Below are positions 1,476 through 22,995 of a stretch of 29,696 nucleotides of DNA, piece after piece (the first letter of the stretch is position 1; each line of letters starts with the position of its first letter). Position numbers and translations under genes: made by a program. This stretch comes from Phreatobacteraceae bacterium. GTDB lineage: Bacteria; Pseudomonadota; Alphaproteobacteria; Rhizobiales; JBDHTH01. The notes below the pieces were generated by a model that had not been told where the DNA came from, searched no databases, and saw only the letters and a list, made by a program, of their open reading frames with translations. Location: contig JBDHTH010000001.1 of NCBI GenBank assembly GCA_039808545.1, positions 1-29,696 of the forward strand. Reading direction: 5' to 3'.

Positions 1476-1500
1476 AGCCAACAGAACCGAGCCAAGAGAA

Positions 1501-1516: not shown

Positions 1517-1544
1517 CGGCCGCTACATGATCCGGGAGGACACC

Positions 1545-2558: not shown

Positions 2559-2581
2559 GAGGCGGCGCAAAGGCCAGCGCG

Positions 2582-3100: not shown

Positions 3101-3104
3101 CCCC

Positions 3105-5930: not shown

Positions 5931-5932
5931 GC

Positions 5933-6904: not shown

Positions 6905-7557
6905 CGCACGACCCTTTCGACCGCGAAGCGGATCCGGTCGCCGGGCGCGAGCGCGGCCGGGATCGGTCGGTCGACGTCGAAGAAGCACCAGTCCGTATGC
7001 CCGATCGTGTGCCAGCCGCTCGGGCCCGGCGAGGCCGAAACGCCGGTCTGTGCGCCGCCGATCGATACGGCGCCGGCCGGAATGCGTTGCAGCGGCACCT
7101 TGCGACGCGGCACCGCGAGGCGCGGATCCATGCCGCCGAGATAGCAGTAGCCCGGATGGCTGCCGAGCGCGAAGACCGTGTAGAGCGGCGCGCTGTGCAG
7201 GCTGACGACATCGTCGACCGACAGGCCGCAATGCGCCGAGACATCGGCCAGCGAATTGCCCACCTCGCCGCCATAGGTCACCGGCAGCGCGACCTCGCGG
7301 CCCTCCAGAGGGGAGGCTTGCGCCGCGTGCCATGCCTCTTCGAGGAGTGCGAGGAAACGGTCGATGGCGCGTGGCGGGCGCGCGAAGAGAACCAGCAGGT
7401 TCGTCATCCCCGGCACCGCTTCGCTAACCCCCTCCCATGTCGCGATGCGGCGCGCCAGCGCCCAGATGCGCTGCTGCTGCGCGAGGTCGAAAGCGCCCGG
7501 CGCTTCGAAGAGGACCGCGGTCGTGGCGAGGAGGCTGATATGCGGGCGCTCCGCCAT
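6901..7557 (-). CDS. pxpB: PxpB-like / urea carboxylase CT (C/D) domain protein
   Basis: ATG at 7557, 1 nt after the accC stop. Motifs EAVPG, LPVTYGG, G..PGY.YLGG, PRR..P...IPAGAVSIGG.QTG and SPGPSGW..IG. Confidence 0.88.
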   Translation of the reverse strand: MAERPHISLLATTAVLFEAPGAFDLAQQQRIWALARRIATWEGVSEAVPGMTNLLVLFARPPRAIDRFLALLEEAWHAAQASPLEGREVALPVTYGGEVGNSLADVSAHCGLSVDDVVSLHSAPLYTVFALGSHPGYCYLGGMDPRLAVPRRKVPLQRIPAGAVSIGGAQTGVSASPGPSGWHTIGHTDWCFFDVDRPIPAALAPGDRIRFAVERVVR

Positions 7558-7558
7558 C

Positions 7559-8911
7559 TCAGGCGGCGTCCCGGCGTGCCAGCCATTGTCCGAGATGGTG
7601 GATTGCATAACCGCCTTCGCGGAACGCATCGTCCTCCAGGATGGCGCGATGGAGGGGGAGGTTGGTCTCCACCCCCTCCACGCGCATCTCGGAGAGCGCG
7701 ACGCGGGCGCGGGCGAGCGCTTCCGCGCGCGTTTCGCCATGCACGATCAGCTTGCCGATCAGCGAGTCGTAATAGGGCGGAACGGTGCCGCCCGCCGCCA
7801 TGTGGGAATCGACCCGGATGCCGATGCCGCCCGGAACGTCCCAGCGCGTCACGGTTCCGGGCGAGGGCGCGAAGCTCCAGGGATTCTCGGCGTTGATCCT
7901 GAATTCGAGCGCATGGCCCCGGCCCGCGATATCGGCCTGGGCGATGGGAAGCGGCTCGCCGCGCGCGATCCGGATCTGCTCCCCGACGATGTCGATGCCG
8001 CTCGTCGCCTCGGTGACGGGGTGCTCGACCTGCACGCGGGTGTTCATCTCGATGAAGAAGAACGCGCCGTCCTGGAACAGGAACTCGAACGTGCCCGCGC
8101 CGCGATAGCCGAGCCGCCGGCAGGCCTCGGCGCAGCGCGCGCCGACCGCCGCGACGAGCGCCCGATCGATGCCGGGCGCCGGCGCCTCCTCGACGACCTT
8201 CTGGTTGCGCCGCTGCAGCGAGCAGTCGCGATCGCCGATCCAGAGATGGTTGTCGTGATCGTCGGACAGCACCTGGATCTCGATATGGCGGGGCCGTTCC
8301 AGGAACTTCTCGATATAGATGGCGGGATTCTTGAAGGCGGCGCGCGCCTCCGCGCGGGTGACGTCGAGCGCCTCGGTCAGCTCTTCCGGCGCGCGGACGA
8401 TGCGCATGCCGCGTCCGCCGCCGCCGCCCGCCGCCTTCACGATGACCGGATAGCCGATCTCGCGCGCGATCCCCGCGATCGCGGCCGGATCCTCCGGCAG
8501 ATCCTCGTCCGGTCCCGGCACGCAGGGCACGCCGGCCTCGCGCATGGCGCGCTTGGCCGCGACCTTGTCGCCCATTGTTCTGATGCACTCTGCCGGCGGC
8601 CCGATGAAGACGCGCCCGGCCGCTTCGACCGCCGCCGCGAAATCGGCGTTCTCCGAGAGAAAACCATAGCCGGGATGGATCGCGCCGGCGCCGGTCGCCT
8701 CCGCCGCCAGCAGGATCGCCGAGGCGTTGAGATAGCTGCGGCCGGCCGCGGGGGGGCCGATGCAGACGGCCTCGTCGGCGGAAGCGACATAGGAGGCGTC
8801 GCGGTCCGCCTCCGAATGGGCGACGACCGTCTTCAGTCCGAGAGCGCGGCAGGCACGCTGGATCCGCAGGGCGATTTCGCCGCGATTGGCGATCAGGACC
8901 TTGTCGAACAT
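7559..8911 (-). CDS. accC: Biotin carboxylase (ATP-grasp)
   Basis: [14 protein letters not shown] start, [47 protein letters not shown] and [12 protein letters not shown]. Context suggests a paralogue dedicated to this cluster rather than the fatty-acid ACC. Confidence 0.95.
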
Positions 8912-8945
8912 CGACGCCCTCCGCTGCGCCTCCGCCGGCCGGCAG

Positions 8946-9398
8946 TCACGCCGCCGCCGCATCGAGGCCGATGCGGAGCAGCGGTTGCCCGGCTTCGACC
9001 TCGGAGGCGTTCTCGGCAAGGATTGCCAGCACCGTTCCGGCGGCCTCGGCCTCGATCCGGATGAAGGTCTTCATCGCTTCGACCACGCAGACCGCCTGCC
9101 CGGCCTCGACCCGCGCGCCGAGCTCCGTGAAGGGCGGCGCGCCGGGCGCCGGCGCGCGATGAAAGACGCCGTAGGTCGGGGCGCAGATCTCGATCTCCGC
9201 GGCGGCGCTCGCGGCGGCTGGCGCCGAGGTTGCCGGAGGCGCGGCGCGCTCGGCCGGCGGGGACGCGACTTCCGCGACGGCTGCGCCGGGCTGGCCCTTC
9301 ACTATGCGAATGCGCGTGCCGTTCTCGGTGATCTCCAGCTCGGCGATCCGCGACCGGGCCACGAGATCGAGCAGCTCTTCGATGCGCGTGAGATCCAC
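8946..9398 (-). CDS. accB: Biotin carboxyl carrier protein
   Basis: GTG start, Ala/Pro linker and EAMKT biotinylation motif (Lys codon at 9069-9071). Confidence 0.93.
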
Positions 9399-9431
9399 GT
9401 CGCAGGCCCTTTCTTTTCCGCCGCGATGCCC

Positions 9432-10190
<759 letters not shown>

Positions 10191-10352: not shown

Positions 10353-11267
10353 GTGGACACGCGACGCCTGGAAGCCTTCGTGAAGATCGTCGATCTCGGC
10401 AGCGTCACCCGCGCCGCCAAGGTGCTCAATGTCGCGCAGCCGGCGCTCAGCCAGCAGATCGCCGGGCTCGAGGCCGAGTTCAAGCGCCAGCTTCTCGTCC
10501 GCACGACGCGCGGCGTGACGCCGACCGAGGCCGGGCAGACGCTCTACCGCTACGCCAAGTCGATCCAGCGCCAGCTCGACGAGGCCCGGCGGCACATCCT
10601 CGACGCCAACCAGCGGTTGACCGGCAACGTGACGGTGGGGCTCGCGCCGCTCAGCTCGGCAACGCTGCTCGCCCTGCCGCTGCTGCGCGAAACGCGCCGG
10701 CGCCATCCCGGAATCGTCCTGCATGTCGTCGACAGCTTCGGCATCGTCTTGAGCGAGCTGATGCTCAAGGGCAGCATGGACATCGCGCTGCTCTACGGTG
10801 ACCGGCCCGTGCGCGGACTGGACTACAGGCCTGTCCTGAAGGAACGGTTCTCGCTGGTTGCCGCGCGGCGAGCCTTTCAGGACCACGGTGACGGCACGGC
10901 GATCGGCCCGGAGGCGCTTGGATCGTTCGACCTCCTTCTGCCCTCGAAGGAGTCGTTCCTGCGGCAGGCGACGGAGCGGATCTGCGCGGAGGGAAACGTG
11001 CAGCCGCGGGTCGTCGGCGAGGTTCAGTCGCTGCACCTGCTCTCCGCCGCGCTGGCGGCCGATATCGGCGCGACGGTGCTGCCGGCGAGCATCGCCAGGA
11101 CGCTTCCGGACTTCGCCGCGCTCGACCTGCGCCGGATCGACGCGACGGCCGCCATGTTGCAGCTCTCGCTCTGCATATCGGACTATGCCGGGCTCTCGGA
11201 CGCCGCCTTCGCGGTCTACAACATTCTCCTGGAATTGATCGCGCAGGGCGGCGTACTGGAGGCCTAG
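10353..11267 (+). CDS. LysR family transcriptional regulator, Nac-like (copy 1)
   Basis: GTG start. HTH region DTRRLEAFVKIVDLGSVTRAAKVLNVAQPALSQQI closely resembles enterobacterial Nac as I recall it. C-terminal effector domain present. Confidence 0.92.
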   Translation: MDTRRLEAFVKIVDLGSVTRAAKVLNVAQPALSQQIAGLEAEFKRQLLVRTTRGVTPTEAGQTLYRYAKSIQRQLDEARRHILDANQRLTGNVTVGLAPLSSATLLALPLLRETRRRHPGIVLHVVDSFGIVLSELMLKGSMDIALLYGDRPVRGLDYRPVLKERFSLVAARRAFQDHGDGTAIGPEALGSFDLLLPSKESFLRQATERICAEGNVQPRVVGEVQSLHLLSAALAADIGATVLPASIARTLPDFAALDLRRIDATAAMLQLSLCISDYAGLSDAAFAVYNILLELIAQGGVLEA

Positions 11268-11409: not shown

Positions 11410-12081
11410 GTGGTTCACGTCATAAGAAATTTCGATAGACCCGCGGCAGACCTCGTCGCGCAGATTCAGAAATATCCTCCATCCACCCTGCACGAGGCGC
11501 AGGGGCGATCGGGCGCGCTGACCTCGCGGATCAAGCCGATCTATCCGGGCATGCGGGCCTGCGGGCCGGCCCTCACGGTGAGCTGCCACCCCGGCGACAA
11601 CATGATGCTCATCACGGCGATCACGCTTGCCAAGCCGGGTGACGTGCTGGTGGTCAGCGCCGGCGACCGCCCGGAGCAGGGCGGCTTCGGCGAGGTCCTC
11701 GCCACGGCCTGCATGGCGAAAGGCATCGCGGGCCTCGTCACCGATGCGGGGGTCCGCGACGGCCCGGCGGTGCGCGCGCGGGGCTTCAACGTCTTCTGCT
11801 ATGGCCTCTGCATGAAGGGCACCGTCAAGGAGACGCTCGGCGCCATCAACCAGCCGATCACCATCGGCGGCGTCCATATCCGGCCGGGCGACATCGTCAG
11901 CGCCGACGATGACGGCGTCGTGGTTGTCCCGCAGGAGACCATCGCGGATGTCTGCGCCAAGTCCGAGGCCCGCGAGGCGAAGGAAGCCGAGGTGATGAAG
12001 GCGCTCGAGGCGGGCGGCGACATCCTGGAGCTTTCCGGCATCGGCAAGGTGCTGCAGGCGAAGGGATGCACCTTCGCCTGA
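11410..12081 (+). CDS. RraA-like 4-hydroxy-4-methyl-2-oxoglutarate / 4-carboxy-4-hydroxy-2-oxoadipate aldolase family protein
   Basis: GTG start. Motifs STLHEAQG, GDNMM, GFGEVLAT, DAGVRD and PGDIVSADDDGVVVVP. Confidence 0.88.
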   Translation: MVHVIRNFDRPAADLVAQIQKYPPSTLHEAQGRSGALTSRIKPIYPGMRACGPALTVSCHPGDNMMLITAITLAKPGDVLVVSAGDRPEQGGFGEVLATACMAKGIAGLVTDAGVRDGPAVRARGFNVFCYGLCMKGTVKETLGAINQPITIGGVHIRPGDIVSADDDGVVVVPQETIADVCAKSEAREAKEAEVMKALEAGGDILELSGIGKVLQAKGCTFA

Positions 12082-12100
12082 CGATGCCGCCACGGCATCG
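12082..12100 (+). other. Perfect 8-bp inverted repeat directly after the aldolase stop
   Basis: CGATGCCG-CCA-CGGCATCG. There is no U-tract, so a terminator role is uncertain. Confidence 0.35.
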
Positions 12101-12239
12101 CTCGGCCTGCATCCGCTGCTGCGGCTTGAAATCGGCCGGCCGCGTGCTTCTATGGCGGCCGCCGCGTCTGGCATGTCGTGCGGGCAGGAGGAACGCGCCT
12201 CTTGCCCGCTTGTCCGCAACGGATGTCCGGGAGCCGGCC

Positions 12240-13142
12240 ATGGATACCAGGCGGCTTAGATCCTTCATCAGGATTGTCGATACCGGCAGCATCACGCGTG
12301 CGGCCGACGTCCTGAACATTGCCCAGCCCGCGCTCAGCCAGCAGCTGGCGGCGCTCGAATCGCATTTCCGCCAGCAGCTTCTGATCCGCGGCCCGCAAGG
12401 CGTGACACCCACCGAGGCGGGCCGCACGCTCTATAGGCACGCCCAGGTCATCCTGAAGCAGTTCGACCTCGCCTATGCGGATGTCAGCGCGTCGCGCTAC
12501 ACGATTTCCGGGAAGGTTTCGATCGGGCTGGCGCCCTATAGCGGGGCGACGCAGCTTTCGGTTGCGCTGCTACGCGCCGTGCGAGAGGAGCTGCCCGGCG
12601 TCACGCTGCACATCGTCGAGAGCTTCGGTCAGGCTTTCAGTGAGCTCGTGATCAACGGCCGGCTCGATCTGGCTGTCATCCACGGGGCGGGCCCCATCAA
12701 GGGCGCCAAGTTCAAGCCGATCCTGACCGAGCGCTTCTTCCTGATCGCGCCGCTCGAATCCGACTGGCCGGACGAGCCCGTGCCGCTGGAGCGGCTTGCC
12801 GGTGTGCCGATGCTGCTGCCGCCGACCTATAATTTCGTCCGTCGCGCGGTCGAGCTCGCGTTCCTGCGCCGCGGCGCGCCGCTCAATCTGGTCGCCGAGA
12901 TAGAATCGCTGATCACGCTCGGCAAGAGCGTGACGGAAGGGCTCGGCGCGACGATCATGCCGATGAGCTTCGCGCGCGACATCGTCGGCCTCGACCGTGT
13001 CAAGGTGCGGGATATCGATCCGGCCATCGAGGAAACGCTCTCGATCTGCATGCCCGAGCATTCCACATTGTCGGAGCCGGCCGAAGCCGTGCGCCAGATC
13101 CTCGAGCGGCTGGAACCCCTGATCCAGTCCGCCGCGGACTAA
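12240..13142 (+). CDS. LysR family transcriptional regulator, Nac-like (copy 2)
   Basis: MDTRRLRSFIRIVDTGSITRAADVLNIAQPALSQQL. Its stop overlaps the convergent gene's stop (CTAA at 13139-13142). Confidence 0.92.
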   Translation: MDTRRLRSFIRIVDTGSITRAADVLNIAQPALSQQLAALESHFRQQLLIRGPQGVTPTEAGRTLYRHAQVILKQFDLAYADVSASRYTISGKVSIGLAPYSGATQLSVALLRAVREELPGVTLHIVESFGQAFSELVINGRLDLAVIHGAGPIKGAKFKPILTERFFLIAPLESDWPDEPVPLERLAGVPMLLPPTYNFVRRAVELAFLRRGAPLNLVAEIESLITLGKSVTEGLGATIMPMSFARDIVGLDRVKVRDIDPAIEETLSICMPEHSTLSEPAEAVRQILERLEPLIQSAAD

Positions 13143-14161
13143 ATGCGCGGCGCCACCTTCACCCACGCCCCATCGGCGCGCGCGCTCGCGGCGATCGCCT
13201 CGAGCGTCGCGGCGATATCGAGCGATTCCGCCTCGCTCGCGCCGGTCCAGCGGTCGGCGCCGTGCGTCAGCATGTCGGCGAAGGATTCTGCCTCCCGCCG
13301 GAAGCCGTTGCCCTCCGGCACCGGAATGTCCTCGAACGGCGCGTCGTAGGCGATGCCCTTGCGCAGGCGCAGCAGCGGCGGCCCGTAGAGGGGCGGGTGG
13401 TTGAGGTAATTCGTCTCGATCAGGCCCTCGCTGCCGGTGATCTCGGCATGGCGGTGATAGGCGGTCTCGAAGGAGCAGGACATCTGCGCCAGGATGCCGC
13501 TTGGGAACACGATATTGGCGATCGTCGTGAGGTCGACACCGTTCGCCGCGAAGCGGGCGGTCGCCTGCACGCGTTCGGGCCTTTCGCCGGCGACGATGCG
13601 GATCAGGCTGAAAGGATAGGTTCCGGCATCGAGCAGCGCGCCGCCGCCAAGCGCCGCGTTGAGGCGGATATTGGCGGGATCGGCGGCCATGACGCCGAAG
13701 CTCGCGCGGATGGTGCTGATCCGCCCGACTGCCCGCGCGGCGATCAGCGCGCGCAGCGTCGTGGTCTGCTCCTGCGCCATATAGGGATAGCCCTCGACGA
13801 TCCGCACGCCGTGCCGGCGCCCGGCCTCGAAGATGGCCCGCGCCTCGCTTTCGCCGACCGCGAGCGGCTTCTCGCAGAGCACCGGCTTGCCGGCCGCCGC
13901 CGCCTTGATCGCCCATTCGGCATGCAGGCCGTTCGGCAGCGGGATGTAGACCGCGTCGATCTCGGGATCGGCGAGCAGCGCCTCGTAGGAGCCGTGCCAG
14001 CGCGGCACGCCGGTCTCGCGGGCGAAGGCCTCGGCCTTGTCGGCGGCCCGGCTCGCGACCGCTGCAACTGTGGCCTTGTCCGACGGCTTGACGCCCTTGA
14101 TGAAGGCGCGGGCGATGTTGGCGGCCCCTAGGATACCGTAGCGCAGCGGCGGCTGGGTCAT
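13139..14161 (-). CDS. Gfo/Idh/MocA family oxidoreductase
   Basis: YGILGAANIA, CEKPLA and GGGALLDAGTY motifs. Confidence 0.92.
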   Translation of the reverse strand: MTQPPLRYGILGAANIARAFIKGVKPSDKATVAAVASRAADKAEAFARETGVPRWHGSYEALLADPEIDAVYIPLPNGLHAEWAIKAAAAGKPVLCEKPLAVGESEARAIFEAGRRHGVRIVEGYPYMAQEQTTTLRALIAARAVGRISTIRASFGVMAADPANIRLNAALGGGALLDAGTYPFSLIRIVAGERPERVQATARFAANGVDLTTIANIVFPSGILAQMSCSFETAYHRHAEITGSEGLIETNYLNHPPLYGPPLLRLRKGIAYDAPFEDIPVPEGNGFRREAESFADMLTHGADRWTGASEAESLDIAATLEAIAASARADGAWVKVAPRI

Positions 14162-14176
14162 GGTGGGATCCCGCGG

Positions 14177-14869
14177 CTAAAGCATCGGCTCGAACTGGCA
14201 ATGCACCAGCAGCTCCGAGACCGAGGCGTTGTTGGGCAGCCGCAGCGCCATGTCGGTCAGCGCCGCGATATCCTCGGGCGCACTCATCTCGTGGCGCGGG
14301 ATCTCGTCGTCGGCGAGCGTCATGTCGGTCGCCACATAGCCCGGACAGATGACGGTCGCGCGGATGCCGGCGGCGCGGCCCTCGCGGCGGATGCCATGCG
14401 TCATCGCCACCACGGCGAACTTGGTCATCGCATAGCCGACATTCGACCCGACGCGCTTGCCCGACAGCGAGCCGAGATTGACGACGCGCCCGTGGCCGCA
14501 GACCGCCAGATAGGGAAGGGCGGCCTTGATCACCCGGAGCGGTCCCTTGACGTTGACACGCCACATCTCCTCGAGGAGCTCTTCGTCGCCGTCCGAGACG
14601 CGCACCTTCGGATTGATGCCCGCCGCGTTGACGAGCCCGTCCACCCCGCCCCAGCGCGCCACCGTCGCCTCGACCCAGGCGAGCGGGCTCGCGGCGTCGG
14701 TGGCGTCATAAGGGTGCACCATCAGGTTCTCGGCCTCCTTCATGCGCGAGGGATCGCGCATGCCGGCCGACACCCTGTAGCCGGACTTCAGGAGGCGGTT
14801 CACCACCGCCCGCCCGATGCCGCGCGAGGCTCCCGATACCATGACGATGCGATTGTCAGGCTCCAGCAT
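14177..14869 (-). CDS. Short-chain dehydrogenase/reductase, Mas1/MocC-like
   Basis: GGAGG RBS before ATG 14869. SGASRGIG and catalytic YAMTK. Several segments match my recollection of the agropine synthesis reductase SDR domain. Confidence 0.88.
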   Translation of the reverse strand: MLEPDNRIVMVSGASRGIGRAVVNRLLKSGYRVSAGMRDPSRMKEAENLMVHPYDATDAASPLAWVEATVARWGGVDGLVNAAGINPKVRVSDGDEELLEEMWRVNVKGPLRVIKAALPYLAVCGHGRVVNLGSLSGKRVGSNVGYAMTKFAVVAMTHGIRREGRAAGIRATVICPGYVATDMTLADDEIPRHEMSAPEDIAALTDMALRLPNNASVSELLVHCQFEPML

Positions 14870-14944
14870 CCGTTCCTCCCGTTCCGAATGGCGGGAGCCT
14901 AGGCAGCCGATAGCCGCGTGCATAAGACCGTTTCGCTCTGTCGG

Positions 14945-14961
14945 TATCCGCGCGGCTTATG
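14945..14961 (-). promoter_or_regulatory. LysR/Nac-like box
   Basis: Minus strand reads CATAAG-CCGCGCG-GATA (ATAA-N8-GAT). Located in the divergent SDR/aminotransferase intergenic region. Confidence 0.5.
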
Positions 14962-14977
14962 GGCGCACAGCCGCGCT

Positions 14978-14994
14978 CATTCGCGACCCTTATG
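14978..14994 (-). promoter_or_regulatory. LysR/Nac-like box
   Basis: Minus strand reads CATAAG-GGTCGCG-AATG, embedded in the dyad CTCAT-N11-ATGAG (14976-14996). Confidence 0.6.
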
Positions 14995-15077
14995 AGGGCA
15001 GAAGAAATTCGTCCTATGCCGAGCATCGGCGCGCTCCTACGGTCCGTTCACCCGAGTGCTGCCCTGCGGAGCCTGCG

Positions 15078-16280
15078 ATGCCGGAAATCGCCGATCGACT
15101 GAAGAAGGTCAAAGTCTCGGCCTCGGCCGCGATGACCGACAAGGCGCGGGAGCTGCGCGCCCAGGGCGTGAAGATCGTCAGCCTGTCGTCGGGCGAGCCG
15201 GACTTTCCGACGCCGCCGCATGCGGTGGAGGCGGCGCACCAGGCGGCGCTCGCGGGCGACACGAAATATCCGCCGCAGCCCGGCACGCCGGCCCTGCGCG
15301 CCGCCATCCAGCGCAAGTTCAAGCGCGATAACGGCCTCGACTATGCACTCGACGAGATCCTCGTCGCCAATGGCGGCAAGCAGGTGATCTTCAACGCGCT
15401 GCTCGCGACCTGCAATCCGGGCGACGAGGTGGTCATTCCAGCGCCCGGCTGGATCACCTATGCGGATATCGCCCTCCTCGCCGAGGCGACGCCCGTGCCG
15501 GTGCCGTGCCCGGAGAACAACGGCTTCAAGCTGCGCCCGGCCGATCTCGAGGCCGCGATCACCGCGAAGACCAAATGGCTGATCCTGAATTTCCCGAACA
15601 ACCCGACGGGCGCCGCCTGCACGCGGGCCGAGATGCGCGAGATCGCGGACGTCATGCTCCGCCATCCCCATGTCTGGATCCTCACGGACGATATCTACGA
15701 GCACCTCGTCTATGGCGGCTTCGAGTTCTGCACGATCGCCGAGGTCGAGCCGGCGCTGAAGGGTCGCGTGCTGACCGTCAATGGCGTGTCCAAGGCCTAC
15801 GCGATGACCGGCTGGCGGGTCGGCTATTGCGGCGGCCCGAAACCGCTGATCGCGGCCATGAACAACGTGCACGGCCAGGCGACCGGCGGCATCACGACGG
15901 TGAGCCAGGCGGCGGCCGTCGCGGCGCTCGACGGGCCGCAGGACCTTCTCGCCGAGCGCGCCGCCATCTACCAGGCACGGCGCGACATGGTGGTGGAGCG
16001 GCTGAACCGCATTCCCGGCATCACCTGCCACAAGCCGGAAGGCGCCTTTTACGTCTTCCCGAACATCGCGGGATGTATCGGCAAGACGAGCCGCGGCGGA
16101 CGGCTGATCGCCAACGACACGGATTTCGTGACGGCCCTCCTTGCCGAGCAGCATGTCGCGACCGTGCAGGGAGCGGCCTATGGCATGAGCCCCTATTTCC
16201 GGATCTCCTATGCGACCGACATGGAAACGCTCGAGGAGGGGTGCGACCGCATCGCGGCCTTCTGCGCCGGGCTGACGTGA
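15078..16280 (+). CDS. PLP-dependent class I aminotransferase (aspartate aminotransferase-like)
   Basis: GEPDF, NFPNNPTG, DDIYEH and PLP-lysine motif SKAYAMTGWRVGY. Start taken as MPEIADRL. Confidence 0.93.
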   Translation: MPEIADRLKKVKVSASAAMTDKARELRAQGVKIVSLSSGEPDFPTPPHAVEAAHQAALAGDTKYPPQPGTPALRAAIQRKFKRDNGLDYALDEILVANGGKQVIFNALLATCNPGDEVVIPAPGWITYADIALLAEATPVPVPCPENNGFKLRPADLEAAITAKTKWLILNFPNNPTGAACTRAEMREIADVMLRHPHVWILTDDIYEHLVYGGFEFCTIAEVEPALKGRVLTVNGVSKAYAMTGWRVGYCGGPKPLIAAMNNVHGQATGGITTVSQAAAVAALDGPQDLLAERAAIYQARRDMVVERLNRIPGITCHKPEGAFYVFPNIAGCIGKTSRGGRLIANDTDFVTALLAEQHVATVQGAAYGMSPYFRISYATDMETLEEGCDRIAAFCAGLT

Positions 16281-16300
16281 GGCCGACACCGCGCCGCGGG

Positions 16301-16317
16301 CATAAGCGCTGCAAATG
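16301..16317 (+). promoter_or_regulatory. LysR/Nac-like box upstream of the ABC transporter operon
   Basis: CATAAG-CGCTGCA-AATG has identical flanks to the box at 14978-14994. Confidence 0.6.
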
Positions 16318-16336
16318 ACCCTAAACGAAGATCGTC

Positions 16337-16366
16337 TTGGCGTAGCGGCGTAACGGCTCGTAAGCT
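16337..16366 (+). promoter_or_regulatory. Candidate sigma70-type promoter for the ABC/pxp operon
   Basis: TTGGCG-N18-TAAGCT. This would place the LysR box centre about 64 nt upstream of the inferred start site. Confidence 0.35.
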
Positions 16367-16534
16367 TTGTTCCATGGTGGCGGTCGGTATCGGCTCCGGG
16401 CAATGCAGCCCCCTCACGCCCGCGCACCGGAAAATGGCAGAGGTCGGCGAAACTCCATCGCGGCTGCGTGAGCGAGGCTGCGCGCCGCGCCATGGCCGCA
16501 GGAAAAAACGGGGGATGAGCGTGCATATCGTAAC

Positions 16535-17467
16535 ATGTTCGACCCGGCAAGGATTCGGCGCGTGACCGAGAACGTCGAGGAGATGCCGCGCCGCCGGGCC
16601 TCGATTCCGCCGTTTCGTCTCTCGGCGAAATATCTCGCCCTGCCGATGCTGGCGTTTCTCTCGTATTTCTTTTTCTATCCGGCGCTCAGCCTGCTGTTCT
16701 CCAGCGTCCAGACCCAGAACAGCCAAGGCATCGTCGGCCCGCCCTATACGCTCTCCCACTATGTTCGGCTGATCGACGTCGACCTCTATGCGCGGGTCTT
16801 CTGGAACACGCTGCGCATGAGCGTGATCACCTCGCTGCTCGCCACCCTCATCGCCTATCCGGTCGCCATCGTCATGGTGAAGAGCCGGCCGATGGTGACG
16901 CGGATCATCACCTTGATCGTCATCGCGCCGCTGATCGTCTCGGTGGTCGTGCGCGGCTACGGCTGGCAGCTCGTGCTGATGAACGGCCCGAAGGGCATGC
17001 TGAACTGGATCCTGATGACGCTCGGCATCACCGACGGGCCGATCTCGGTCCTCTATACGGAAGCCGCGGTCATCATCGGCTCGCTGCACGTGTTTTTCCC
17101 GATGATGGTGCTGCCGCTCGCCTCCGCGCTCGGCAAGATCGACCCGAACCTGGAGGACGCGGCGCGCATGCTCGGCGCGCCCTGGTGGAAGGTCTTCCTT
17201 AGGATCACGCTGCCCCTGAGCCTGCCGGGCTTCGTGGCCGGCTTCACCATCGTGTTCTCGCTGACGGCCGGTTCCTTCGTGATCCCGGCGATCCTCGGCG
17301 GCCCCGCCGCGCTGATGCTCGGCAACCTGATCGAGCAGCAGATCTTCGTCGTCTACGACTGGCCGTTCGGGGCCGCCATCGCGATGATCCTGGTCGCGGT
17401 CGTCTTCGCCGTGAACGGCGTCTCGATGTGGCTGCTCGAAGGCCGCCGTTTCAAGAGGGCCGAGTGA
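16535..17467 (+). CDS. ABC transporter permease, PotB-like
   Basis: Hydrophobic protein with EAA loop LEDAARMLGA and SAGSFVIP-type/WPFGAA motifs. Start is uncertain (16535, GTG 16562 or ATG 16583). Confidence 0.9.
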   Translation: MFDPARIRRVTENVEEMPRRRASIPPFRLSAKYLALPMLAFLSYFFFYPALSLLFSSVQTQNSQGIVGPPYTLSHYVRLIDVDLYARVFWNTLRMSVITSLLATLIAYPVAIVMVKSRPMVTRIITLIVIAPLIVSVVVRGYGWQLVLMNGPKGMLNWILMTLGITDGPISVLYTEAAVIIGSLHVFFPMMVLPLASALGKIDPNLEDAARMLGAPWWKVFLRITLPLSLPGFVAGFTIVFSLTAGSFVIPAILGGPAALMLGNLIEQQIFVVYDWPFGAAIAMILVAVVFAVNGVSMWLLEGRRFKRAE

Positions 17468-18270
17468 TGGACGAGCGCTTCTCCGGCCCCGGCGCCTGGA
17501 CCCTCTACGCGATCACCATCGCGATGATGGTCTTCATCATGACGCCGCTCCTCCTGGTGATGGCGGTCTCGGTGTCGGACAGCTATTTCGTGACCTTCCC
17601 GCCGCAGGGCTTCACGCTCAAATGGTACCTGAAGGTGCTGGAGGATCGCGACTTCATCGACGGGATGAAGCTCAGCATCCTGCTCGCCTTCGGCGCGACC
17701 GCGGGCTCGCTGCTGCTCGGCGTGCCGGCCGCCTTCGCACTCGTCCGGGGCAACTTTCTCGGCGTCGCGGCGATCAAGGGGTTTCTGCTCTCGCCGCTGA
17801 TCTTTCCGACCCTCGTCACGGGTCTCGCGCTGCTGCAGGTGCTGTCGCGGCTCGGCTCCGAGGATGCGCGGCTGAACCTGCTCATCGGCCATATCGTGGT
17901 CACGGCGCCCTATGTCATACGCACCGTGATCACCGGGCTGCAGCTCGTCGACGAAAACCTCGAGGATGCGGCCCGCACCCTCGGCGCCAACCGCCTCGTG
18001 ACCTTCTGGCGCGTTACGCTGCCGCAGATCGCGCCAAGCGTTGCCGCGGGCGGGCTCTTCGCCTTCATGGTGTCGTTCGACAACTACCCGATCTCGATGT
18101 GGCTCGCCAATTCCGAGCACACCCCGGTGCCGCTCGTTCTGATGCGCCAGCTCGTCAACGTCTTCGACCCGTCGGTCCCGGCGATGTCGACGATCATCAT
18201 CCTGCTCGCGCTGCTCGGCGTCCTGATCCTGGAACGCCTGGTGGGCCTGCGCCGCGCTCTCGCCGCCTAG
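17467..18270 (+). CDS. ABC transporter permease, PotC-like
   Basis: TGATG overlap with the upstream permease. Motifs FTLKWY, LEDAARTLGA and SFDN. Confidence 0.92.
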   Translation: MDERFSGPGAWTLYAITIAMMVFIMTPLLLVMAVSVSDSYFVTFPPQGFTLKWYLKVLEDRDFIDGMKLSILLAFGATAGSLLLGVPAAFALVRGNFLGVAAIKGFLLSPLIFPTLVTGLALLQVLSRLGSEDARLNLLIGHIVVTAPYVIRTVITGLQLVDENLEDAARTLGANRLVTFWRVTLPQIAPSVAAGGLFAFMVSFDNYPISMWLANSEHTPVPLVLMRQLVNVFDPSVPAMSTIIILLALLGVLILERLVGLRRALAA

Positions 18271-18300
18271 AAATTCTCGCAAGCAAAGGGGAATGGAACC

Positions 18301-19362
18301 ATGGCACTTTCGCGCAGAACCCTGATCAAGGCCGGCGCCGCCGCGTCGCTGTTTCCGACTATCATCAGCCGCGCCTCGGCGCAGGGCAAGCAGCTCCATG
18401 TCGGCGTCTACAACTCGGCGCAGGGCAAGCTGATTCAGAAGGAAATCATTCCGAAGTTCGAGGCCGAGTTCAAATGCCGTGTCTTCACGACCGAGGGCGC
18501 GACGCTCGCCAATATCGCGGCCCTGCGCGCCACGCGGGACGCGCCGCGCTTTAGCGTCATGTCGATGGACGATGTCGGCATCCCGCAGGCCAAGCAGGAA
18601 GGGCTGATCGACAAGCTCGACCCCAACAAGATTCCGAATCTCGAGAAGGTCTACAAGCGCTACATCTTCGAGGACGGCTACGGCGTCGGCTTCGCGATCT
18701 CGAGCGCCGCGATGTTCATCAATCCGCAGGTGACGAAATCGCTGGAGAGCTACGAGCAGATCTTCGACGCGAAATACCGCAAGCAGATCCTGCTCAACAC
18801 GCCGAAGAACACGCAGAGCGTGCTGATGCTGATCGTGGCGACCTCGCTCGCCACCGGCAAGCCGCTGAAGGAGGCGCAGTATCTCGTCGACCAGGGCTGG
18901 GACAAGCTCGCGACGCTGAAGCCGAACGTCCTCACCATCTATGACAGCGAGGCGCAGGTGCTGCAGGTCGCGCAGGGCCAGGCGACGATCGGCGGCATCG
19001 AGTATTCCAAGGCGATCTATCCGCACACGGCCAAGGGCATGCCGATCGACATGGCGTTCCCGAAGGAGGGCTCGTTCACGGGCATCAACAGCATCACGCT
19101 GGTGAAGAACGCGCCCGAGCCGGAGCTCGGCGCGGCCTTCATCAACCGCCTGCTGGAGCCTTCCGTCGCGAAGATGCTGGCCGAGCAGACGCTCAGCGCT
19201 CCCTCGGTCGCCGGCATCGACTTCAAGCCCGAGGTCGCCCGCTTCCTCGCCTATCCGGACACGAAGGCGACCGATCTCGGCCTCTTCACGCCGGACTGGA
19301 ACTATATCGTGCCGCGCCGCGGGCCGTGGCTCGAGCGCTACAACCAAGTCTTCACGAGCTGA
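18301..19362 (+). CDS. ABC transporter extracellular solute-binding protein (PotD/PotF-like fold) with Tat signal
   Basis: MALSRRTLIK twin-arginine signal, KLD..KIPNL, FPKEG and LVKNAP..ELG.AFIN motifs. Confidence 0.88.
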   Translation: MALSRRTLIKAGAAASLFPTIISRASAQGKQLHVGVYNSAQGKLIQKEIIPKFEAEFKCRVFTTEGATLANIAALRATRDAPRFSVMSMDDVGIPQAKQEGLIDKLDPNKIPNLEKVYKRYIFEDGYGVGFAISSAAMFINPQVTKSLESYEQIFDAKYRKQILLNTPKNTQSVLMLIVATSLATGKPLKEAQYLVDQGWDKLATLKPNVLTIYDSEAQVLQVAQGQATIGGIEYSKAIYPHTAKGMPIDMAFPKEGSFTGINSITLVKNAPEPELGAAFINRLLEPSVAKMLAEQTLSAPSVAGIDFKPEVARFLAYPDTKATDLGLFTPDWNYIVPRRGPWLERYNQVFTS

Positions 19363-19373
19363 GCGGCGCCATC

Positions 19374-20471
19374 ATGAAATCGGCCGAAGTCAGGCTTGAA
19401 TCGCTTTGCAAGCACTACGCCGACCTGAAGGCGGTCGATGACGTGTCGCTGACCATCGAGCCGGGCAGCATGATCGCGCTGCTCGGCCCGAGCGGCTGCG
19501 GGAAGACCACCTGCCTGAGAATGATCGCGGGCCTCATCAGGCCCTCCTCCGGCGCGATCTACATCAACGGCAGCGACGTGACGCCGGTGCCCGTGCACCG
19601 GCGCAACATCGGCATGCTGTTCCAGAACTACGCGCTCTTTCCGCATATGACCGTGGAGGAGAACATCGCGTTCGGCCTGCAGATGCGCGGCGTTGCCAAG
19701 GCCGATATCGCCCAGAAGGTCGCCGATGCGCTCGCCCTGGTGCAGCTCTCGGCGCTCGGCAAGCGCTATCCGGCGCAGCTTTCGGGCGGCCAGCAGCAGC
19801 GTGTGGCGCTTGGCCGTTCGCTGGTCATCGAGCCGGCCGTGCTGCTGCTCGACGAGCCGCTCGGCGCGCTCGACAAGGGCCTCCGGGAGAGCATGCAGGT
19901 GGAGCTGCGCGCGCTCCAGCAGCGCCTCGGCCTCACCACCGTCATGGTCACGCACGACCAGGACGAGGCGCTGACCATGGCGGACAAGATCGTCGTCATG
20001 CGCGGCGGCCGGCTCGAGCAGGTCGGCTCGGCGACCGAGATCTACCAGCGGCCGGCCTCGACCTTCGTGGCGCGCTTCATCGGCGCCTCCAACCTCTTCG
20101 AGGGCCGCGTGGCCGCCCGCAACGGCGCCGGGGCCGAGATCGTCGCCGAGAACGGCATCCGCTTCCGCGTCGAGCAGCTTGCGGAGGATCGCAAGGACGT
20201 CACCGTCTCGGTCCGCCCGGAATCGATCGTCGTCGACAAGGCGGCCGGCAACGGGGCCGCGCCGGAGGGGGCGAACGCCGTGCGCGCCAGGATCGATCAG
20301 GTCGTCTATCGCGGCTATGTCAGCCACTACTACATGAGCACCGCCGATGGCGGGCAGCTGATCGCCTTCGAGCAGAACCAGTCCAGCGAAACCGGCCTGC
20401 ACTACGCGCCCGGCGACGAAGTTCTCGCCCGCTGGAGCCCTTCGGCGATCCACGTCATTCCGCAAGCCTGA
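19374..20471 (+). CDS. ABC transporter ATP-binding protein, PotA-like
   Basis: Walker A GPSGCGKT, signature LSGGQQQRVAL, Walker B LLLDEP, H-loop VTHDQ and a C-terminal TOBE-like region. Confidence 0.95.
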   Translation: MKSAEVRLESLCKHYADLKAVDDVSLTIEPGSMIALLGPSGCGKTTCLRMIAGLIRPSSGAIYINGSDVTPVPVHRRNIGMLFQNYALFPHMTVEENIAFGLQMRGVAKADIAQKVADALALVQLSALGKRYPAQLSGGQQQRVALGRSLVIEPAVLLLDEPLGALDKGLRESMQVELRALQQRLGLTTVMVTHDQDEALTMADKIVVMRGGRLEQVGSATEIYQRPASTFVARFIGASNLFEGRVAARNGAGAEIVAENGIRFRVEQLAEDRKDVTVSVRPESIVVDKAAGNGAAPEGANAVRARIDQVVYRGYVSHYYMSTADGGQLIAFEQNQSSETGLHYAPGDEVLARWSPSAIHVIPQA

Positions 20472-20501
20472 ACCAAGACGGCCGCGCAACCCGATCGCAT
20501 C

Positions 20502-21212
20502 ATGCTGGATCGACATTCACGCCAGACCGATATCGCCGTGCCGCTCGCTGCCGTGCCGCCCGGCGCGCCGAAGATCAGCTTCATCGGCACGCATGCGGTG
20601 CTCGTGGAGGCGCCCGGCGATCTCTGCCTGGAGCAGCAGAACCGCATCTGGACGCTCGCCGAGCTGGTCTCGGCCTGGCCGAATGTCGCGGAGGCGGTGC
20701 CGGGGGTCACCAACCTCATGCTGGTGCTGAAAGCCCCGCTCGAGGATGTCGACGCCTTCGTCGCGACGCTGCAGGAAACCTGGCGCCGCCTGCCGCGCCG
20801 CGAGCGCAAGGGCAAGCTGATCGAGATCCCGGTGATCTATGGCGGCGAGCTCGGCTTCGACCTGCCGGCCGTCGCGCGGCGCGCCGGCCTGTCGGAGCGC
20901 GAGGTGATCCGCATCCATGCCGAGCGCGCCTACACGGTCTTCGCGATCGCGAGCTCGCCGGGCTTCGGCTATCTCTCGGGCCTTGATCCGCGCATCTTCA
21001 TGCCGCGCAAGACCGTGCCGTCGCTGAACATGCGCGCCGGCTCGGTGACGATCGGCGGCATGCAGACCGGCGTTGCGGTGTTGACGAGCCCGAATGGCTG
21101 GAACGCCATCGGCTGGGCCGAGCAGCCGATGTTCGATCCGGGTAGCGAGACCCCCTCGCTGATGTCGCCCGGCGACGAGGTGCGCTTCCGCATCGATCGG
21201 ATCGAGCTGTGA
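20502..21212 (+). CDS. pxpB: 5-oxoprolinase subunit B-like protein (second copy)
   Basis: EAVPG, IPVIYGG, SPGFGYLSG, PR...P...RAGSVTIGG.QTG and SPNGWNAIG. Confidence 0.9.
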   Translation: MLDRHSRQTDIAVPLAAVPPGAPKISFIGTHAVLVEAPGDLCLEQQNRIWTLAELVSAWPNVAEAVPGVTNLMLVLKAPLEDVDAFVATLQETWRRLPRRERKGKLIEIPVIYGGELGFDLPAVARRAGLSEREVIRIHAERAYTVFAIASSPGFGYLSGLDPRIFMPRKTVPSLNMRAGSVTIGGMQTGVAVLTSPNGWNAIGWAEQPMFDPGSETPSLMSPGDEVRFRIDRIEL

Positions 21213-22183
21213 TCGAGATCCTGACGAGTCACGCTTTCAACACGATCCAGGATCGCGGCCGCTTCGGCGCGCGGCGCCTCGGCGTCAGCACCTCCGGCGT
21301 CATGGACCCGCTGGCGCTCGCGGCCGGCAACCTGATGCTCGGCAATGCCGAGGATGCGGCCGCGATCGAGGTGCAGACCTTTCCGTTCCGCCTGCGTTTC
21401 ACGGCGACGACGCGTTTCGCGGTGACGGGCGCGGATTGCAGCGCGCGCCTCGCGGACCGCGCTCTGCCGCCCTGCTGGTGCGGCCGGGCGGCGGCCGGCG
21501 ACGTGCTGGCGCTCGGCATGCCGAAGCGGGGCTCGCGCGCCTATGTCGCGGTGCCGGGAGGCATCGCGGTGCCGCCCGTGCTCGGCTCGCGCAGCACGCA
21601 TCTGCGCGCCGGCTTCGGCGGCCATGAGGGGCGCGCGATCGCCGCCGGCGATCGGCTGGCGGTCGGCGCCGATGACGGGATAGAGGCGCCGCGCGCCGAT
21701 TTCGGCGTCATGCCGGCCGATGTCGCCATTCCGGCCGAGCCGCTCGAACCGACCTCCCTCGCGATCCGTGTCCTACGGGCCGGCGAATACGATTTCTTCC
21801 CGGCCGAGATGCAGCGCCTCTTCTGGGAAACGCCCTGGAGGATCAGCCTGCAGAGCGACCGCACCGGCTACCGGCTGGCGGGCGCCAAGCTGCTCCTGCC
21901 CAGGCCCGTGGAGATGCGCTCGCACGGCGTCGTCTCGGGTGTCGTGCAGGTTCCGCCGGCCGGCGAGCCGATCATCCAGATGAGCGACGCCAATACGGCC
22001 GGCGGCTATCCGAAGATGGCGGCCGTGATCGAGGCCGATCTATGGCGCCTCGGCCAAGCCGGGCCAGGCACGCTGATCCGCTTCGTCGACGTGTCCTATC
22101 GGGACGCGGTCGCCGCGATGGAGCCGGTCGCGGCCTATGTCGCGCGCATTGCGCGAACCGCCGCGCTTTACCGGACGCTTTGA
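21209..22183 (+). CDS. pxpC: 5-oxoprolinase subunit C-like protein (second copy)
   Basis: GTGA overlap with pxpB. Motifs TIQDRGR, VLGSRST, SDRTGYRL and DANTAGGYPK. Confidence 0.9.
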   Translation: MIEILTSHAFNTIQDRGRFGARRLGVSTSGVMDPLALAAGNLMLGNAEDAAAIEVQTFPFRLRFTATTRFAVTGADCSARLADRALPPCWCGRAAAGDVLALGMPKRGSRAYVAVPGGIAVPPVLGSRSTHLRAGFGGHEGRAIAAGDRLAVGADDGIEAPRADFGVMPADVAIPAEPLEPTSLAIRVLRAGEYDFFPAEMQRLFWETPWRISLQSDRTGYRLAGAKLLLPRPVEMRSHGVVSGVVQVPPAGEPIIQMSDANTAGGYPKMAAVIEADLWRLGQAGPGTLIRFVDVSYRDAVAAMEPVAAYVARIARTAALYRTL

Positions 22184-22215
22184 ACGGGCGCGCCGCCGCC
22201 CAGGAGGACAGCAAG

Positions 22216-22995
22216 ATGAAGATCGACGTGAACTCGGACATGGGCGAGGGCTTCGGCCCCTACCGCATCGGCGACGACGAGGCGCTGATGGATGTCGTCT
22301 CCTCGGCCAACGTCGCCTGCGGCTTCCACGCCGGCGACCCGATCATCATGGATCGCACGGTGCGCATGGCGAAGGCGCGCGGCGTCGGCGTCGGCGCCCA
22401 TCCCGGCCTGCCGGACCTGCTGGGCTTCGGCCGGCGCGTGATCCAGATGGACGCGGCCGAGATCGAGAAGCACATGGTCTACCAGATCGGCGCGCTGCAG
22501 GCGGTCGCCGCCAATGTGGGCCACCGCGTGACGCATGTCAGCTTCCACGCCGCGATGGGCAACATGGTCAATGCCGATCCCGACATGGCGCGCGTCGTCG
22601 CCAAGGCGATCGCCAGGATCGATCGCGACCTCATCGTCTTCTCGATGCCTGACCAGCCGATCGTCGCGGCGGCCGAAGAAGCCGGCCTGCGGACGCTGAC
22701 GCTGTTCCTCGCGGACCGCGCCTATGACGCGACCGGCAATCTGGTGCCCCGCAAGGTCGCCAATTCGGTGATCACCGCGCCCGAGGCGGTCGCGGCCCGC
22801 GTCAAGCGGTTCCTGGACGACGGCACGGTCGAGACGATCGACGGCCAGTCTATCAAGGTGAAGGCCCGCTCGATCCTCGTTCACAGCGACACGCCCGGCG
22901 CGGTGGACCTCGCCCGCACCGTAAGGCGCGTCATCGAGCAGGGCGGGGGAAAGGTCGTCGCGGCGACGGAGCTGGCCATGGCTACGGCAGCGTAG
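22216..22995 (+). CDS. pxpA: LamB/YcsF family protein (5-oxoprolinase subunit A-like)
   Basis: AGGAGG RBS. Motifs DVNSDMGE, SANVACGFHAGDP, HPGLPD..GFGRR, ADRAY and HSDTPGA. Confidence 0.92.
   Translation: MKIDVNSDMGEGFGPYRIGDDEALMDVVSSANVACGFHAGDPIIMDRTVRMAKARGVGVGAHPGLPDLLGFGRRVIQMDAAEIEKHMVYQIGALQAVAANVGHRVTHVSFHAAMGNMVNADPDMARVVAKAIARIDRDLIVFSMPDQPIVAAAEEAGLRTLTLFLADRAYDATGNLVPRKVANSVITAPEAVAARVKRFLDDGTVETIDGQSIKVKARSILVHSDTPGAVDLARTVRRVIEQGGGKVVAATELAMATAA

Follow-up and report, generated by a model that had tools for sequence, protein, structure and literature searches.

What do the genes at positions 11,410 to 22,995 of contig JBDHTH010000001.1, from a Phreatobacteraceae bacterium (assembly GCA_039808545.1), degrade? 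We analysed the first 29,696 nucleotides of this contig (hereafter, the window), in which a preliminary description had proposed an ATP-binding cassette (ABC) importer, a lactamase like the 5-oxoprolinase PxpABC, an aminotransferase (AT) related to aspartate aminotransferases (AspAT), an RraA-type aldolase and, in addition, redox enzymes, all in one apparently co-regulated block that would convert a substituted lactam into a glutamate analogue, a 2-oxo acid and finally pyruvate. With a window G+C content of 68%, genes were chosen by third-position G+C and then confirmed with Pfam and NCBIfam, and all the named genes were found where they had been placed (Table 1). Our results suggest, at what we judge to be even chances, that a conserved catabolic system acting on a small carboxylated molecule that contains nitrogen is for the larger part encoded in this stretch. 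Its core is made of Pxp proteins together with a biotin carboxylase (BC) and a biotin carboxyl carrier protein (BCCP), a YdfG-like short-chain dehydrogenase (SDR), an AspAT-type AT, in most cases RraA, and LysR regulators resembling Nac.

The three PxpABC subunit families (PF02682, PF02626 and PF03746) are encoded in adjacent genes at 20502-22995, but only PxpB reaches the equivalog level. PxpC fails it, and so does PxpA, with 238.5 against the cut-off of 392 of NF003813; for PxpA, the subfamily model NF003814 alone was passed. In this protein the motifs HVSFHAAM and HSDTPG stand in place of the canonical HVKxHGAL and HGDTPG, and the same changes are found in orthologues from Chelatococcus, Bradyrhizobium, Bosea, Paenirhodobacter, Erwinia and Neorhizobium. 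Each genome searched also carries a canonical PxpA paralogue, including the metagenome-assembled genome (MAG) from which the window comes, where it lies on contig C20. That the cluster PxpA is a specialised paralogue, and not the housekeeping one, is supported. In P. putida, PxpABC paralogues have diverged by lactam, with butyrolactam and 5-oxoproline as the respective substrates (bioRxiv 10.1101/2021.12.09.472016).

We compared genome sets through three anchors, namely the PotD-like periplasmic binding protein (SBP), RraA and PxpA. For the last one, 80 PxpA loci were picked independently of their context and their neighbours were scored within 10 kb, with identity thresholds of at least 45% for the AspAT paralogue, 50% for the YdfG-like SDR and 38% for the RraA family. 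A script placed 18 loci in the variant class and 40 in the canonical one, leaving the rest unclassified. Direct reading of the motif in 17 loci, nine of them previously unclassified, added L115 and L169 to the variant class, and seven of the loci read in this way showed the form YVKPHGALYN, with the lysine kept. The last 13 unclassified loci were put in the canonical class with the motif unread; none of the 13 has an AT, SDR1, Nac-like or RraA neighbour. The lysine of the motif is thus counted as lost in 20 loci and kept in 60. Near the Lys-less PxpA we found the AspAT paralogue in 17 of 20 loci, the YdfG-like SDR in 18, a Nac-like LysR in 16 and an RraA-family gene in 13, while each of the four was found in 0 of the 60 canonical loci. 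This co-occurrence, a check that the preliminary description had asked for, is far beyond chance, and the Fisher p-values of the comparison are to be read as indicative only, given the kinship among the genomes and the fact that some loci are cut short. Besides the genera above, the Lys-less clade is present in Rhizobium, Sinorhizobium, Martelella, Acetobacter, Geminicoccaceae, Rhabdaerophilaceae, Paraburkholderia, Trinickia, Variovorax, Rhodoferax, a Pseudomonas, Erwinia rhapontici, Acerihabitans and Amycolatopsis.

The RraA, AT, Pxp and SDR genes travel together in many soil and plant bacteria, and no fewer than five different gene orders, spread over the Alpha-, Beta- and Gammaproteobacteria plus one actinobacterium, show the link between Pxp, an AspAT-type AT and an RraA-type aldolase. 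In 23 Bradyrhizobium and Chelatococcus loci, the order is SDR2 / SDR1-like, AT, ABC, pxpBCA / pxpC2, pxpB2, BC, BCCP, SDR1 / LysR1. Bosea has a single Pxp set with BC/BCCP-SDR1 and LysR1-RraA. A compact form, found in Rhodobacterales and on the Neorhizobium plasmid pNCHU2750a, reads accB, accC, a small gene, pxpB, pxpC, pxpA / ABC / SDR, aatA, SDR / nac, where BC and BCCP are immediately followed by the only Pxp set and RraA is absent. In Erwinia typographi, a Pantoea and Winslowiella we found pxpBCA, LysR / SDR2, AT / ABC, followed by a second LamB gene and an SDR1-like gene, directly in Erwinia and Winslowiella and about 7 kb further in the Pantoea; in the Erwinia locus an amino-acid ABC system comes after these two. 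The Amycolatopsis locus (L169) contains PxpA, B, C, SDR1, AT and RraA. Rhizobium pMK-3 (L102) has, all on one strand, AT, two permeases, SBP, ATPase, RraA-family, BCCP, PxpB, PxpC, BCCP', LamB, accC, LamB and LysR.

With RraA as the anchor, 18 loci reached 76% identity or more and had 10 kb of flank; in every one of them BCCP-BC-PxpB/C-SDR1 was found no further than 10 kb away. A 19th match is a 2.9-kb contig identical to the window. The window's own MAG is the sole member of its GTDB family, and when RraA orthologues were sought in 400 genomes sampled from the order, one more match was obtained, in a genome of another family (G221) that has a further variant of the cluster, with AT, TRAP (tripartite ATP-independent periplasmic) transporter and SDR1 genes divergent from LysR, RraA, BCCP, BC, KipI, KipA and LamB. 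Locus L098 has RraA, BCCP, BC, KipI, KipA and LamB, with SDR1, TRAP and AT divergent from them. A second Bradyrhizobium copy (L053 and L056) runs in one direction as BCCP, BC, KipI, KipA, BCCP', LamB, SDR1, two permeases, ATPase, SBP_bac_3 and RraA. The pMK-3 protein is only 32% identical to the RraA of the window and belongs to another subfamily; two RraA subfamilies were recruited, sometimes inside the same operon. Taking all the clusters together, the enzymatic core is formed by the Pxp genes, usually with BC and BCCP, plus SDR1 and AT, and by RraA in most lineages.

Directly upstream of the stretch, on the minus strand and outside the coordinates previously considered, lies a biotin operon with SDR1, BCCP, BC, a second PxpB/C pair and a small BCCP-like gene, whose equivalents were found in L053, L064 and L102. 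Orthologues of the window BC, with 64-78% identity, adjoin Pxp genes in relatives, and a KipA/PxpC homologue has been reported to hold BCCP-biotin placed for carboxyl transfer (10.1101/2025.10.28.685139). The BC/BCCP module (5520-9431) belongs to the system and most likely serves the Pxp enzyme. With a dedicated module of this kind, which the preliminary description missed, the enzyme is probably not the plain ATP-only, 5-oxoprolinase-like lactamase that had been proposed. As for the second PxpB/C pair of the window, the single Pxp set of the compact clusters and of Bosea shows it to be a lineage-specific duplication; its PxpC is about 48-50% identical to the set-1 PxpC of relatives. A comparable machinery exists in urea carboxylase/urea amidolyase, which likewise combines BC, BCCP and a carboxyltransferase of KipI/KipA-type domains and has nitrogen-linked-looking regulation. 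The window scores 164 against the cut-off of 1304 of the corresponding model, TIGR02712, and it differs in that its subunits are split and in that the hydrolase partner is LamB/PxpA, not allophanate hydrolase.

The RraA protein of the window passed the model NF006731, 'CHA aldolase/oxaloacetate decarboxylase', with 221.4 bits against a cut-off of 179, but stayed below the LigK/PcmE equivalog TIGR02798 (195.6 against 304.5) and the RraA regulator model (62.8 against 136). It aligns with 165 bits to 3NOJ, the P. putida HMG/CHA aldolase (HMG, 4-hydroxy-4-methyl-2-oxoglutarate; CHA, 4-carboxy-4-hydroxy-2-oxoadipate), and it keeps R40, N71, G101, R123, D124, G144, T145, K147, R195 and E199, among them the catalytic Arg-123 and the metal ligands Asp-124 and Glu-199, with residue roles taken from PMC5065237. 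Changes affect D102, which is Glu, and the distal pocket, with H75 replaced by Ile, W72 by Met and F74 by Leu. Given the family model passed and the residues conserved, the protein appears to be a functional class II pyruvate aldolase/oxaloacetate decarboxylase whose distal pocket is altered, so that its earlier identification as an HMG/CHA-type aldolase agrees with the sequence. HMG/CHA aldolases cleave 4-hydroxy-2-oxo dicarboxylates and also decarboxylate oxaloacetate (PMC5065237). In the protocatechuate 4,5-cleavage and gallate pathways (3NOJ of P. putida F1; LigK, GalC and ProA), they share with the window protein the RraA fold, R123/D124/E199 and most pocket residues, but the context here is that of amino acid or amide catabolism, with no aromatic ring-cleavage genes. 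As had been observed before, LigA/B/C/I/J-type families are absent from the approximately 28 genes of the window, and LigB (PF02900) was not found in the MAG, which is 69% complete. Eleven RraA-family matches were counted in this MAG (G000). One of them, a partial gene at a contig end (C135:6708-7064), gives 193 bits to the LigK model over half its length only and, with its higher score per residue, is a better LigK candidate than the RraA of the window. We also observed that six canonical pxpB-pxpC-pxpA loci from Bradyrhizobium/Xanthobacteraceae and related MAGs (L120, L123, L128, L137, L144 and L164) have a third, distant RraA-family gene, 29-32% identical to that of the window, just before them on the opposite strand; in that group, therefore, RraA-like genes adjoin even ordinary pxp genes.

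Regarding the AT, its score to the rhizobial AatA 6F77 is 490 bits, and both GGKQ and SKAY motifs are present. With its PF00155 match (Table 1) it is a fold type I enzyme that has the lysine binding pyridoxal 5'-phosphate and the GGKQ lysine, and it misses the housekeeping AspAT equivalog NF004769 (529.7 against 617). The lysine of GGKQ serves in distal-carboxylate recognition, as in the Thermus AspAT, and by this analogy the protein should be an AspAT paralogue that still recognises a distal carboxylate. SDR1 has YdfG (3ASU) as its best PDB match and misses the equivalog NF007829 (159.6 against 411). The redox enzymes had been listed as additions to the route; with its presence at 18 of the 20 variant loci, the YdfG-like SDR1 is a core member of the module instead.

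SDR2, the Gfo/Idh/MocA enzyme and the importer, on the other hand, are peripheral. Orthologues of SDR2 (56-83% identity) were found only in clusters with the PotD-like ABC importer, and the Gfo enzyme is restricted to the lineage of the window, with L039 as the only instance among the comparison loci; Bradyrhizobium loci have no Gfo enzyme and show a second SDR1-like gene before AT instead. A lead connecting SDR2 with MocC/Mas1 was dropped after finding no named mocC/mas1 context and no Ti-plasmid homologue of the SBP, and was kept only as a weak rival. The ABC importer is present in the window, as described, and is replaced elsewhere by TRAP or amino-acid ABC systems. Its SBP, for which 37 relatives were found, scores 57.9 against the cut-off of 582 of the PotD model NF007048, and the PotD polyamine ligands D168, E171, W255 and D257 are N, S, G and N, respectively. 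The acidic ligands are thus absent and a polyamine is an unlikely ligand, judging from these residues; an AlphaFold2 model of the SBP built on a 13-sequence alignment had a mean pLDDT (predicted local distance difference test score) of 57, too poor for pocket analysis or fold search, and was left unused. More distant importer relatives (48-59% identity) adjoin other amide-bond hydrolases and a class I AT: HyuA/HyuB in L036 and L037, and in L033 Amidohydro_1, an M20 amidohydrolase and a threonine-aldolase-like enzyme. These contexts agree with the uptake of an amide that is cyclic or stable for another reason, and with a transamination after it. Reading L033 as a hydantoinase/carbamoylase pair was rejected, as NCBIfam names only a generic amidohydrolase and an M20 amidohydrolase.

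Of the two regulators, LysR2 passed the Nac model NF008410 marginally (Table 1) and LysR1, with 297.4, failed it. Orthologues of LysR2 (52-56% identity) occur in the clusters of Rhodobacterales, Erwinia, Neorhizobium and Bosea, so that it accompanies the cluster in all taxa. Since LysR1 and LysR2 travel with the cluster, both are probably pathway-specific paralogues. The SDR2/AT intergenic region contains hexamers of the CATA(A/G)G/CTTATG type at 14921, 14956, 14989 and 15013, within 100 bp, and one more lies before the permease gene, at 16301; in the whole window there are 28, against about 14 expected. A Nac-type ATA-N9-TAT site is located at 10311, between SDR1 and LysR1. A scan for consensus promoters and terminators gave nothing above chance in the window, and one hairpin was found after pxpA (23171-23192).

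The idea of a single co-regulated block needs a qualification. AT, the ABC genes and pxpBCA likely form one operon, with gaps of -4 to 254 bp, but the window holds at least three transcription units and not one operon. RraA belongs to a different unit, 142 bp after LysR1 and 3 kb upstream of AT, with LysR2 and two opposite-strand genes in between.

Starting from the gene content, family assignments, conserved catalytic residues and co-occurrence observed here, we infer a possible order of steps, a dependence on biotin and the nature of the substrate. The compound would be imported, in the window by the PotD-like ABC system, and SDR2 or the Gfo-type enzyme might trim it by a redox reaction. A lactam or amide bond would then be opened at the cost of ATP, plus bicarbonate and biotin, giving an aspartate- or glutamate-like amino dicarboxylate, which the AT would convert to a 2-oxo acid and RraA would cleave or decarboxylate to pyruvate and a second product. 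Where RraA is missing, a housekeeping aldolase could substitute for it, or the product could already be a central metabolite. Equally, transamination might precede the Pxp step: the AT would use an amide amino acid, and its 2-oxo product would cyclise. The lactam-to-aldol route originally sketched is plausible in outline. RraA is missing from about a third of the clusters. Its suggested substrate, 4-hydroxy-4-methylglutamate or its lactam, or another 4-substituted pyroglutamate, fits the scheme and is singled out by no result; there are several candidates, and a hydroxylated or 4-substituted 5-oxoproline is one of them. The route through hydroxyproline-derived 4-hydroxyglutamate offers a likeness, as there a 4-substituted glutamate is the substrate of an AspAT and the aldol cleavage that follows yields pyruvate and a carbonyl compound, but the 4-hydroxy-2-oxoglutarate aldolase (HOGA1 or Eda) is of another fold and no lactam is opened. 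In Pseudomonas jessenii, caprolactam catabolism follows the same logic of ATP-dependent lactam opening and then transamination (PMC6061476, PMC8453981), and differs by a HyuA/HyuB-type lactamase, an omega-aminotransferase and the lack of an aldolase and a biotin module.

Several observations weigh against the proposed system and route. RraA lies outside the AT-ABC-pxp transcription unit of the window, and CATA(A/G)G hexamers are absent upstream of it. The compact clusters of Neorhizobium, Rhodobacterales and some Erwiniaceae also lack it, and the Rhodobacterales and Erwiniaceae genomes searched hold elsewhere only RraA paralogues of at most 43% identity; cleavage by RraA is therefore not obligatory. 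Conversely, the L053-type operon has RraA and no AT, so that the 2-oxo group could have a different origin, such as the SDR. A simple four-step route leaves the role of the universally present YdfG-like SDR unexplained. Finally, related genomes are not independent, and the Fisher values for neighbours consequently overstate significance.

How do other explanations fare against the same data? One could argue that the cluster serves plain 5-oxoproline (pyroglutamate) use as carbon and nitrogen source, with PxpABC yielding glutamate and the AspAT 2-oxoglutarate, and with RraA and the SDRs as bystanders. PxpB does exceed its equivalog cut-off and PxpA its subfamily one, and C. glutamicum grows on 5-oxoproline by means of pxpABC together with a transporter and a regulator (PMC13274462). 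The window shares with PxpABC 5-oxoprolinase and its butyrolactam paralogue (E. coli and B. subtilis; P. putida PP_4575-7 and PP_2920-2) the three subunits PxpA (LamB/YcsF), PxpB (CT_C_D) and PxpC (CT_A_B), the link to a transporter and a neighbouring regulator, and a family in which lactam specificity varies between paralogues. But its PxpA lacks the HVK lysine and has HSD for HGD, and its PxpC is far under the equivalog score. The loss of the lysine and two further motif changes are conserved from Alphaproteobacteria to Enterobacterales, a separate canonical PxpA is present in every genome checked, and the ties to BC/BCCP, AspAT, SDR, Nac-like LysR and RraA belong to the variant clade, with none at canonical loci; we therefore regard this explanation as improbable. 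A still smaller probability goes to RraA standing outside the pathway, as an unrelated neighbour or an RNase E regulator, with the AT-ABC-Pxp route ending in a central metabolite. The separate transcription unit in the window and the RraA-free compact clusters, with no orthologue in those of their genomes that were searched, speak for it. The distribution of the family, beside 13 of 20 variant and 0 of 60 canonical loci, does not, and neither do the position of the pMK-3 gene between importer and Pxp genes on one strand, that of the L053 gene at the end of a co-directional row, the independent recruitment of two subfamilies, the intact catalytic residues or the low score with the regulator model.

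The nature of the bond and of the substrate leaves two further alternatives. The substrate could be a primary amide or ureido derivative of aspartate, asparagine or glutamine instead of a lactam, such as 2-hydroxy- or 2-oxosuccinamate, N-carbamoyl-aspartate or 2-oxoglutaramate with its cyclic form 2-hydroxy-5-oxoproline, with RraA acting as an oxaloacetate decarboxylase. BC, BCCP and PxpBC would then N-carboxylate the amide as urea carboxylase does, PxpA would hydrolyse the product, and SDR and AT would interconvert the 2-hydroxy, 2-oxo and 2-amino forms. This account uses all four core enzymes, SDR included, and agrees with the homology of PxpB and PxpC to the carboxyltransferase domain of urea carboxylase (the TIGR02712 match), the dedicated BC and BCCP of most clusters, the two LamB genes of some, the Nac-like regulators and the oxaloacetate decarboxylation by HMG/CHA aldolases (PMC5065237). 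We nevertheless consider it unlikely, since the only characterised PxpABC enzymes open five-membered lactams (bioRxiv 10.1101/2021.12.09.472016), the ATP cost would be hard to explain when simple amidases exist for such amides, and clusters of the Erwinia typographi type have no BC/BCCP nearby. An opine-like or Amadori-type lactam, for instance an N-substituted pyroglutamate resembling agropinic acid whose polyol part would be oxidised by SDR2 and the Gfo/MocA enzyme, seems very unlikely to us. Many hosts are plant-associated, the window does contain a Gfo/Idh/MocA gene, SDR2 homologues (46-50% identity) lie beside flavin adenine dinucleotide (FAD) oxidoreductases and opine- or amino-acid-type ABC genes on Rhizobium and Paraburkholderia plasmids, and weaker SDR2 matches occur on 75 Agrobacterium plasmids. 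However, a search at E < 1e-30 gave no SBP homologue on any Agrobacterium plasmid, a deglycase, a kinase and an FAD opine oxidase are all missing from the cluster, the peripheral members include SDR2 and the Gfo enzyme, and an AspAT cannot act on a secondary amine.

Returning to the conserved catabolic system, a more specific version of it, which we put forward tentatively and at clearly less than even chances, is a widespread pathway, shared by Alpha-, Beta- and Gammaproteobacteria and Amycolatopsis, with a biotin-coupled, Lys-less PxpA at its centre. This enzyme would open a common cyclic amide, or an amide of an amino or oxo dicarboxylate, which the AspAT paralogue, the YdfG-like SDR and RraA would take to pyruvate; hydroxylated 5-oxoproline and 2-hydroxy-5-oxoproline (cyclic 2-oxoglutaramate) are candidates.

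The component enzyme families are known, and lactam opening with transamination has the caprolactam precedent. The clade of biotin-coupled, Lys-less PxpA with AspAT, SDR and RraA partners is uncharacterised and widespread; literature searches on the gene combination found no paper describing the module. PxpABC, KipI/KipA and RraA-like proteins are among the commonest poorly understood bacterial enzyme families, and the combination of variant PxpA, BC/BCCP, AspAT paralogue, YdfG-like SDR, RraA and Nac-like LysR provides a testable and phylogenetically broad module. If the reading is true, it would be the first physiological role for non-aromatic RraA aldolases and for biotin-dependent Pxp enzymes. 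The identity of the substrate would give a function to genes that are labelled 'allophanate hydrolase subunit', 'LamB/YcsF' or 'RraA family' and number in the thousands, tell if Pxp-type enzymes can use carboxybiotin, place RraA-fold aldolases outside aromatic degradation and possibly reveal a nitrogen source of rhizosphere and wastewater bacteria. The three interchangeable transporter types offer three independent binding proteins for ligand screening.

Table 1. Features of the window, with coordinates, strand and supporting matches.
Feature	Coordinates	Strand	Match or remark
BCCP-like small protein (Biotin_lipoyl), last gene of biotin operon	5520..5930	-	PF00364 match at C-terminal end of frame 5520-7274
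PxpC/KipA paralogue 2 (CT_A_B)	5933..6904	-	PF02626, 290 bits
PxpB/KipI paralogue 2 (CT_C_D)	6901..7555	-	PF02682, 210 bits
Biotin carboxylase	7559..8914	-	PF02786, PF00289, PF02785
Biotin carboxyl carrier protein	8946..9431	-	PF00364, 59.6 bits
SDR1, YdfG-like short-chain dehydrogenase	9432..10190	-	PF00106
LysR1, Nac-like regulator, divergent from SDR1-biotin operon	10353..11267	+	PF00126, PF03466
RraA-fold class II pyruvate aldolase/oxaloacetate decarboxylase-like protein	11410..12081	+	PF03737, 149 bits
LysR2, Nac-subfamily regulator	12240..13142	+	NF008410, 313.8 (cut-off 309)
Gfo/Idh/MocA oxidoreductase	13139..14161	-	PF01408, PF22725
SDR2, short-chain dehydrogenase	14177..14869	-	PF00106
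Divergent SDR2/AT control region	14870..15077	.	four CATA(A/G)G-type hexamers
Class Ib AspAT paralogue (AT)	15078..16280	+	PF00155, 270 bits
Two ABC permeases	16535..18270	+	PF00528, two matches
PotD-like periplasmic binding protein (SBP)	18301..19362	+	PF13416
ABC ATPase with TOBE domain	19374..20471	+	PF00005, PF08402
PxpB, set 1	20502..21212	+	PF02682; TIGR00370, 182 (cut-off 145.6)
PxpC, set 1	21209..22183	+	PF02626; NF045499, 290 (cut-off 500)
Variant PxpA/LamB	22216..22995	+	PF03746, 307 bits; NF003814, 342 (cut-off 226)

Some further observations concern the clusters of relatives. Two LamB/PxpA genes are present in Erwinia typographi (L024:13723-14757) and in Rhizobium pMK-3 (L102:16414-19330, flanking accC), which hints that two amide bonds are opened. 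In Bosea sp. LjRoot9, the cluster-type pxpA (L085 / L099:7377-8135) contains one in-frame TGA and could be a pseudogene, a sequencing error or a case of read-through. On plasmid pPAT9B01 of Pantoea sp. At-9b (L101), a nac-ABC unit lies beside accB-accC and a Glu/Leu/Phe/Val dehydrogenase, with pxp and AT genes absent within 11 kb; the dehydrogenase may be a non-orthologous replacement of the AT. Four wastewater runs marked 'RNA?' are probably DNA, and only short contig pieces were obtained from them.

At the edges of the window, positions 1-5359 hold a probably separate, sugar-acid-like upstream unit with the 3' end of a gene of the isocitrate/isopropylmalate/tartrate dehydrogenase family, a second Gfo/Idh/MocA gene, TRAP DctPQM genes and an SMP-30/gluconolactonase-like gene. 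At the other end (27126-29695), a hydantoinase/oxoprolinase HyuA gene comes after a gene of the fumarylacetoacetate-hydrolase family. HyuA/B is a second, unrelated family of ATP-dependent lactam- or hydantoin-opening enzymes, found here beside two PxpB/C sets in a 30-kb window.

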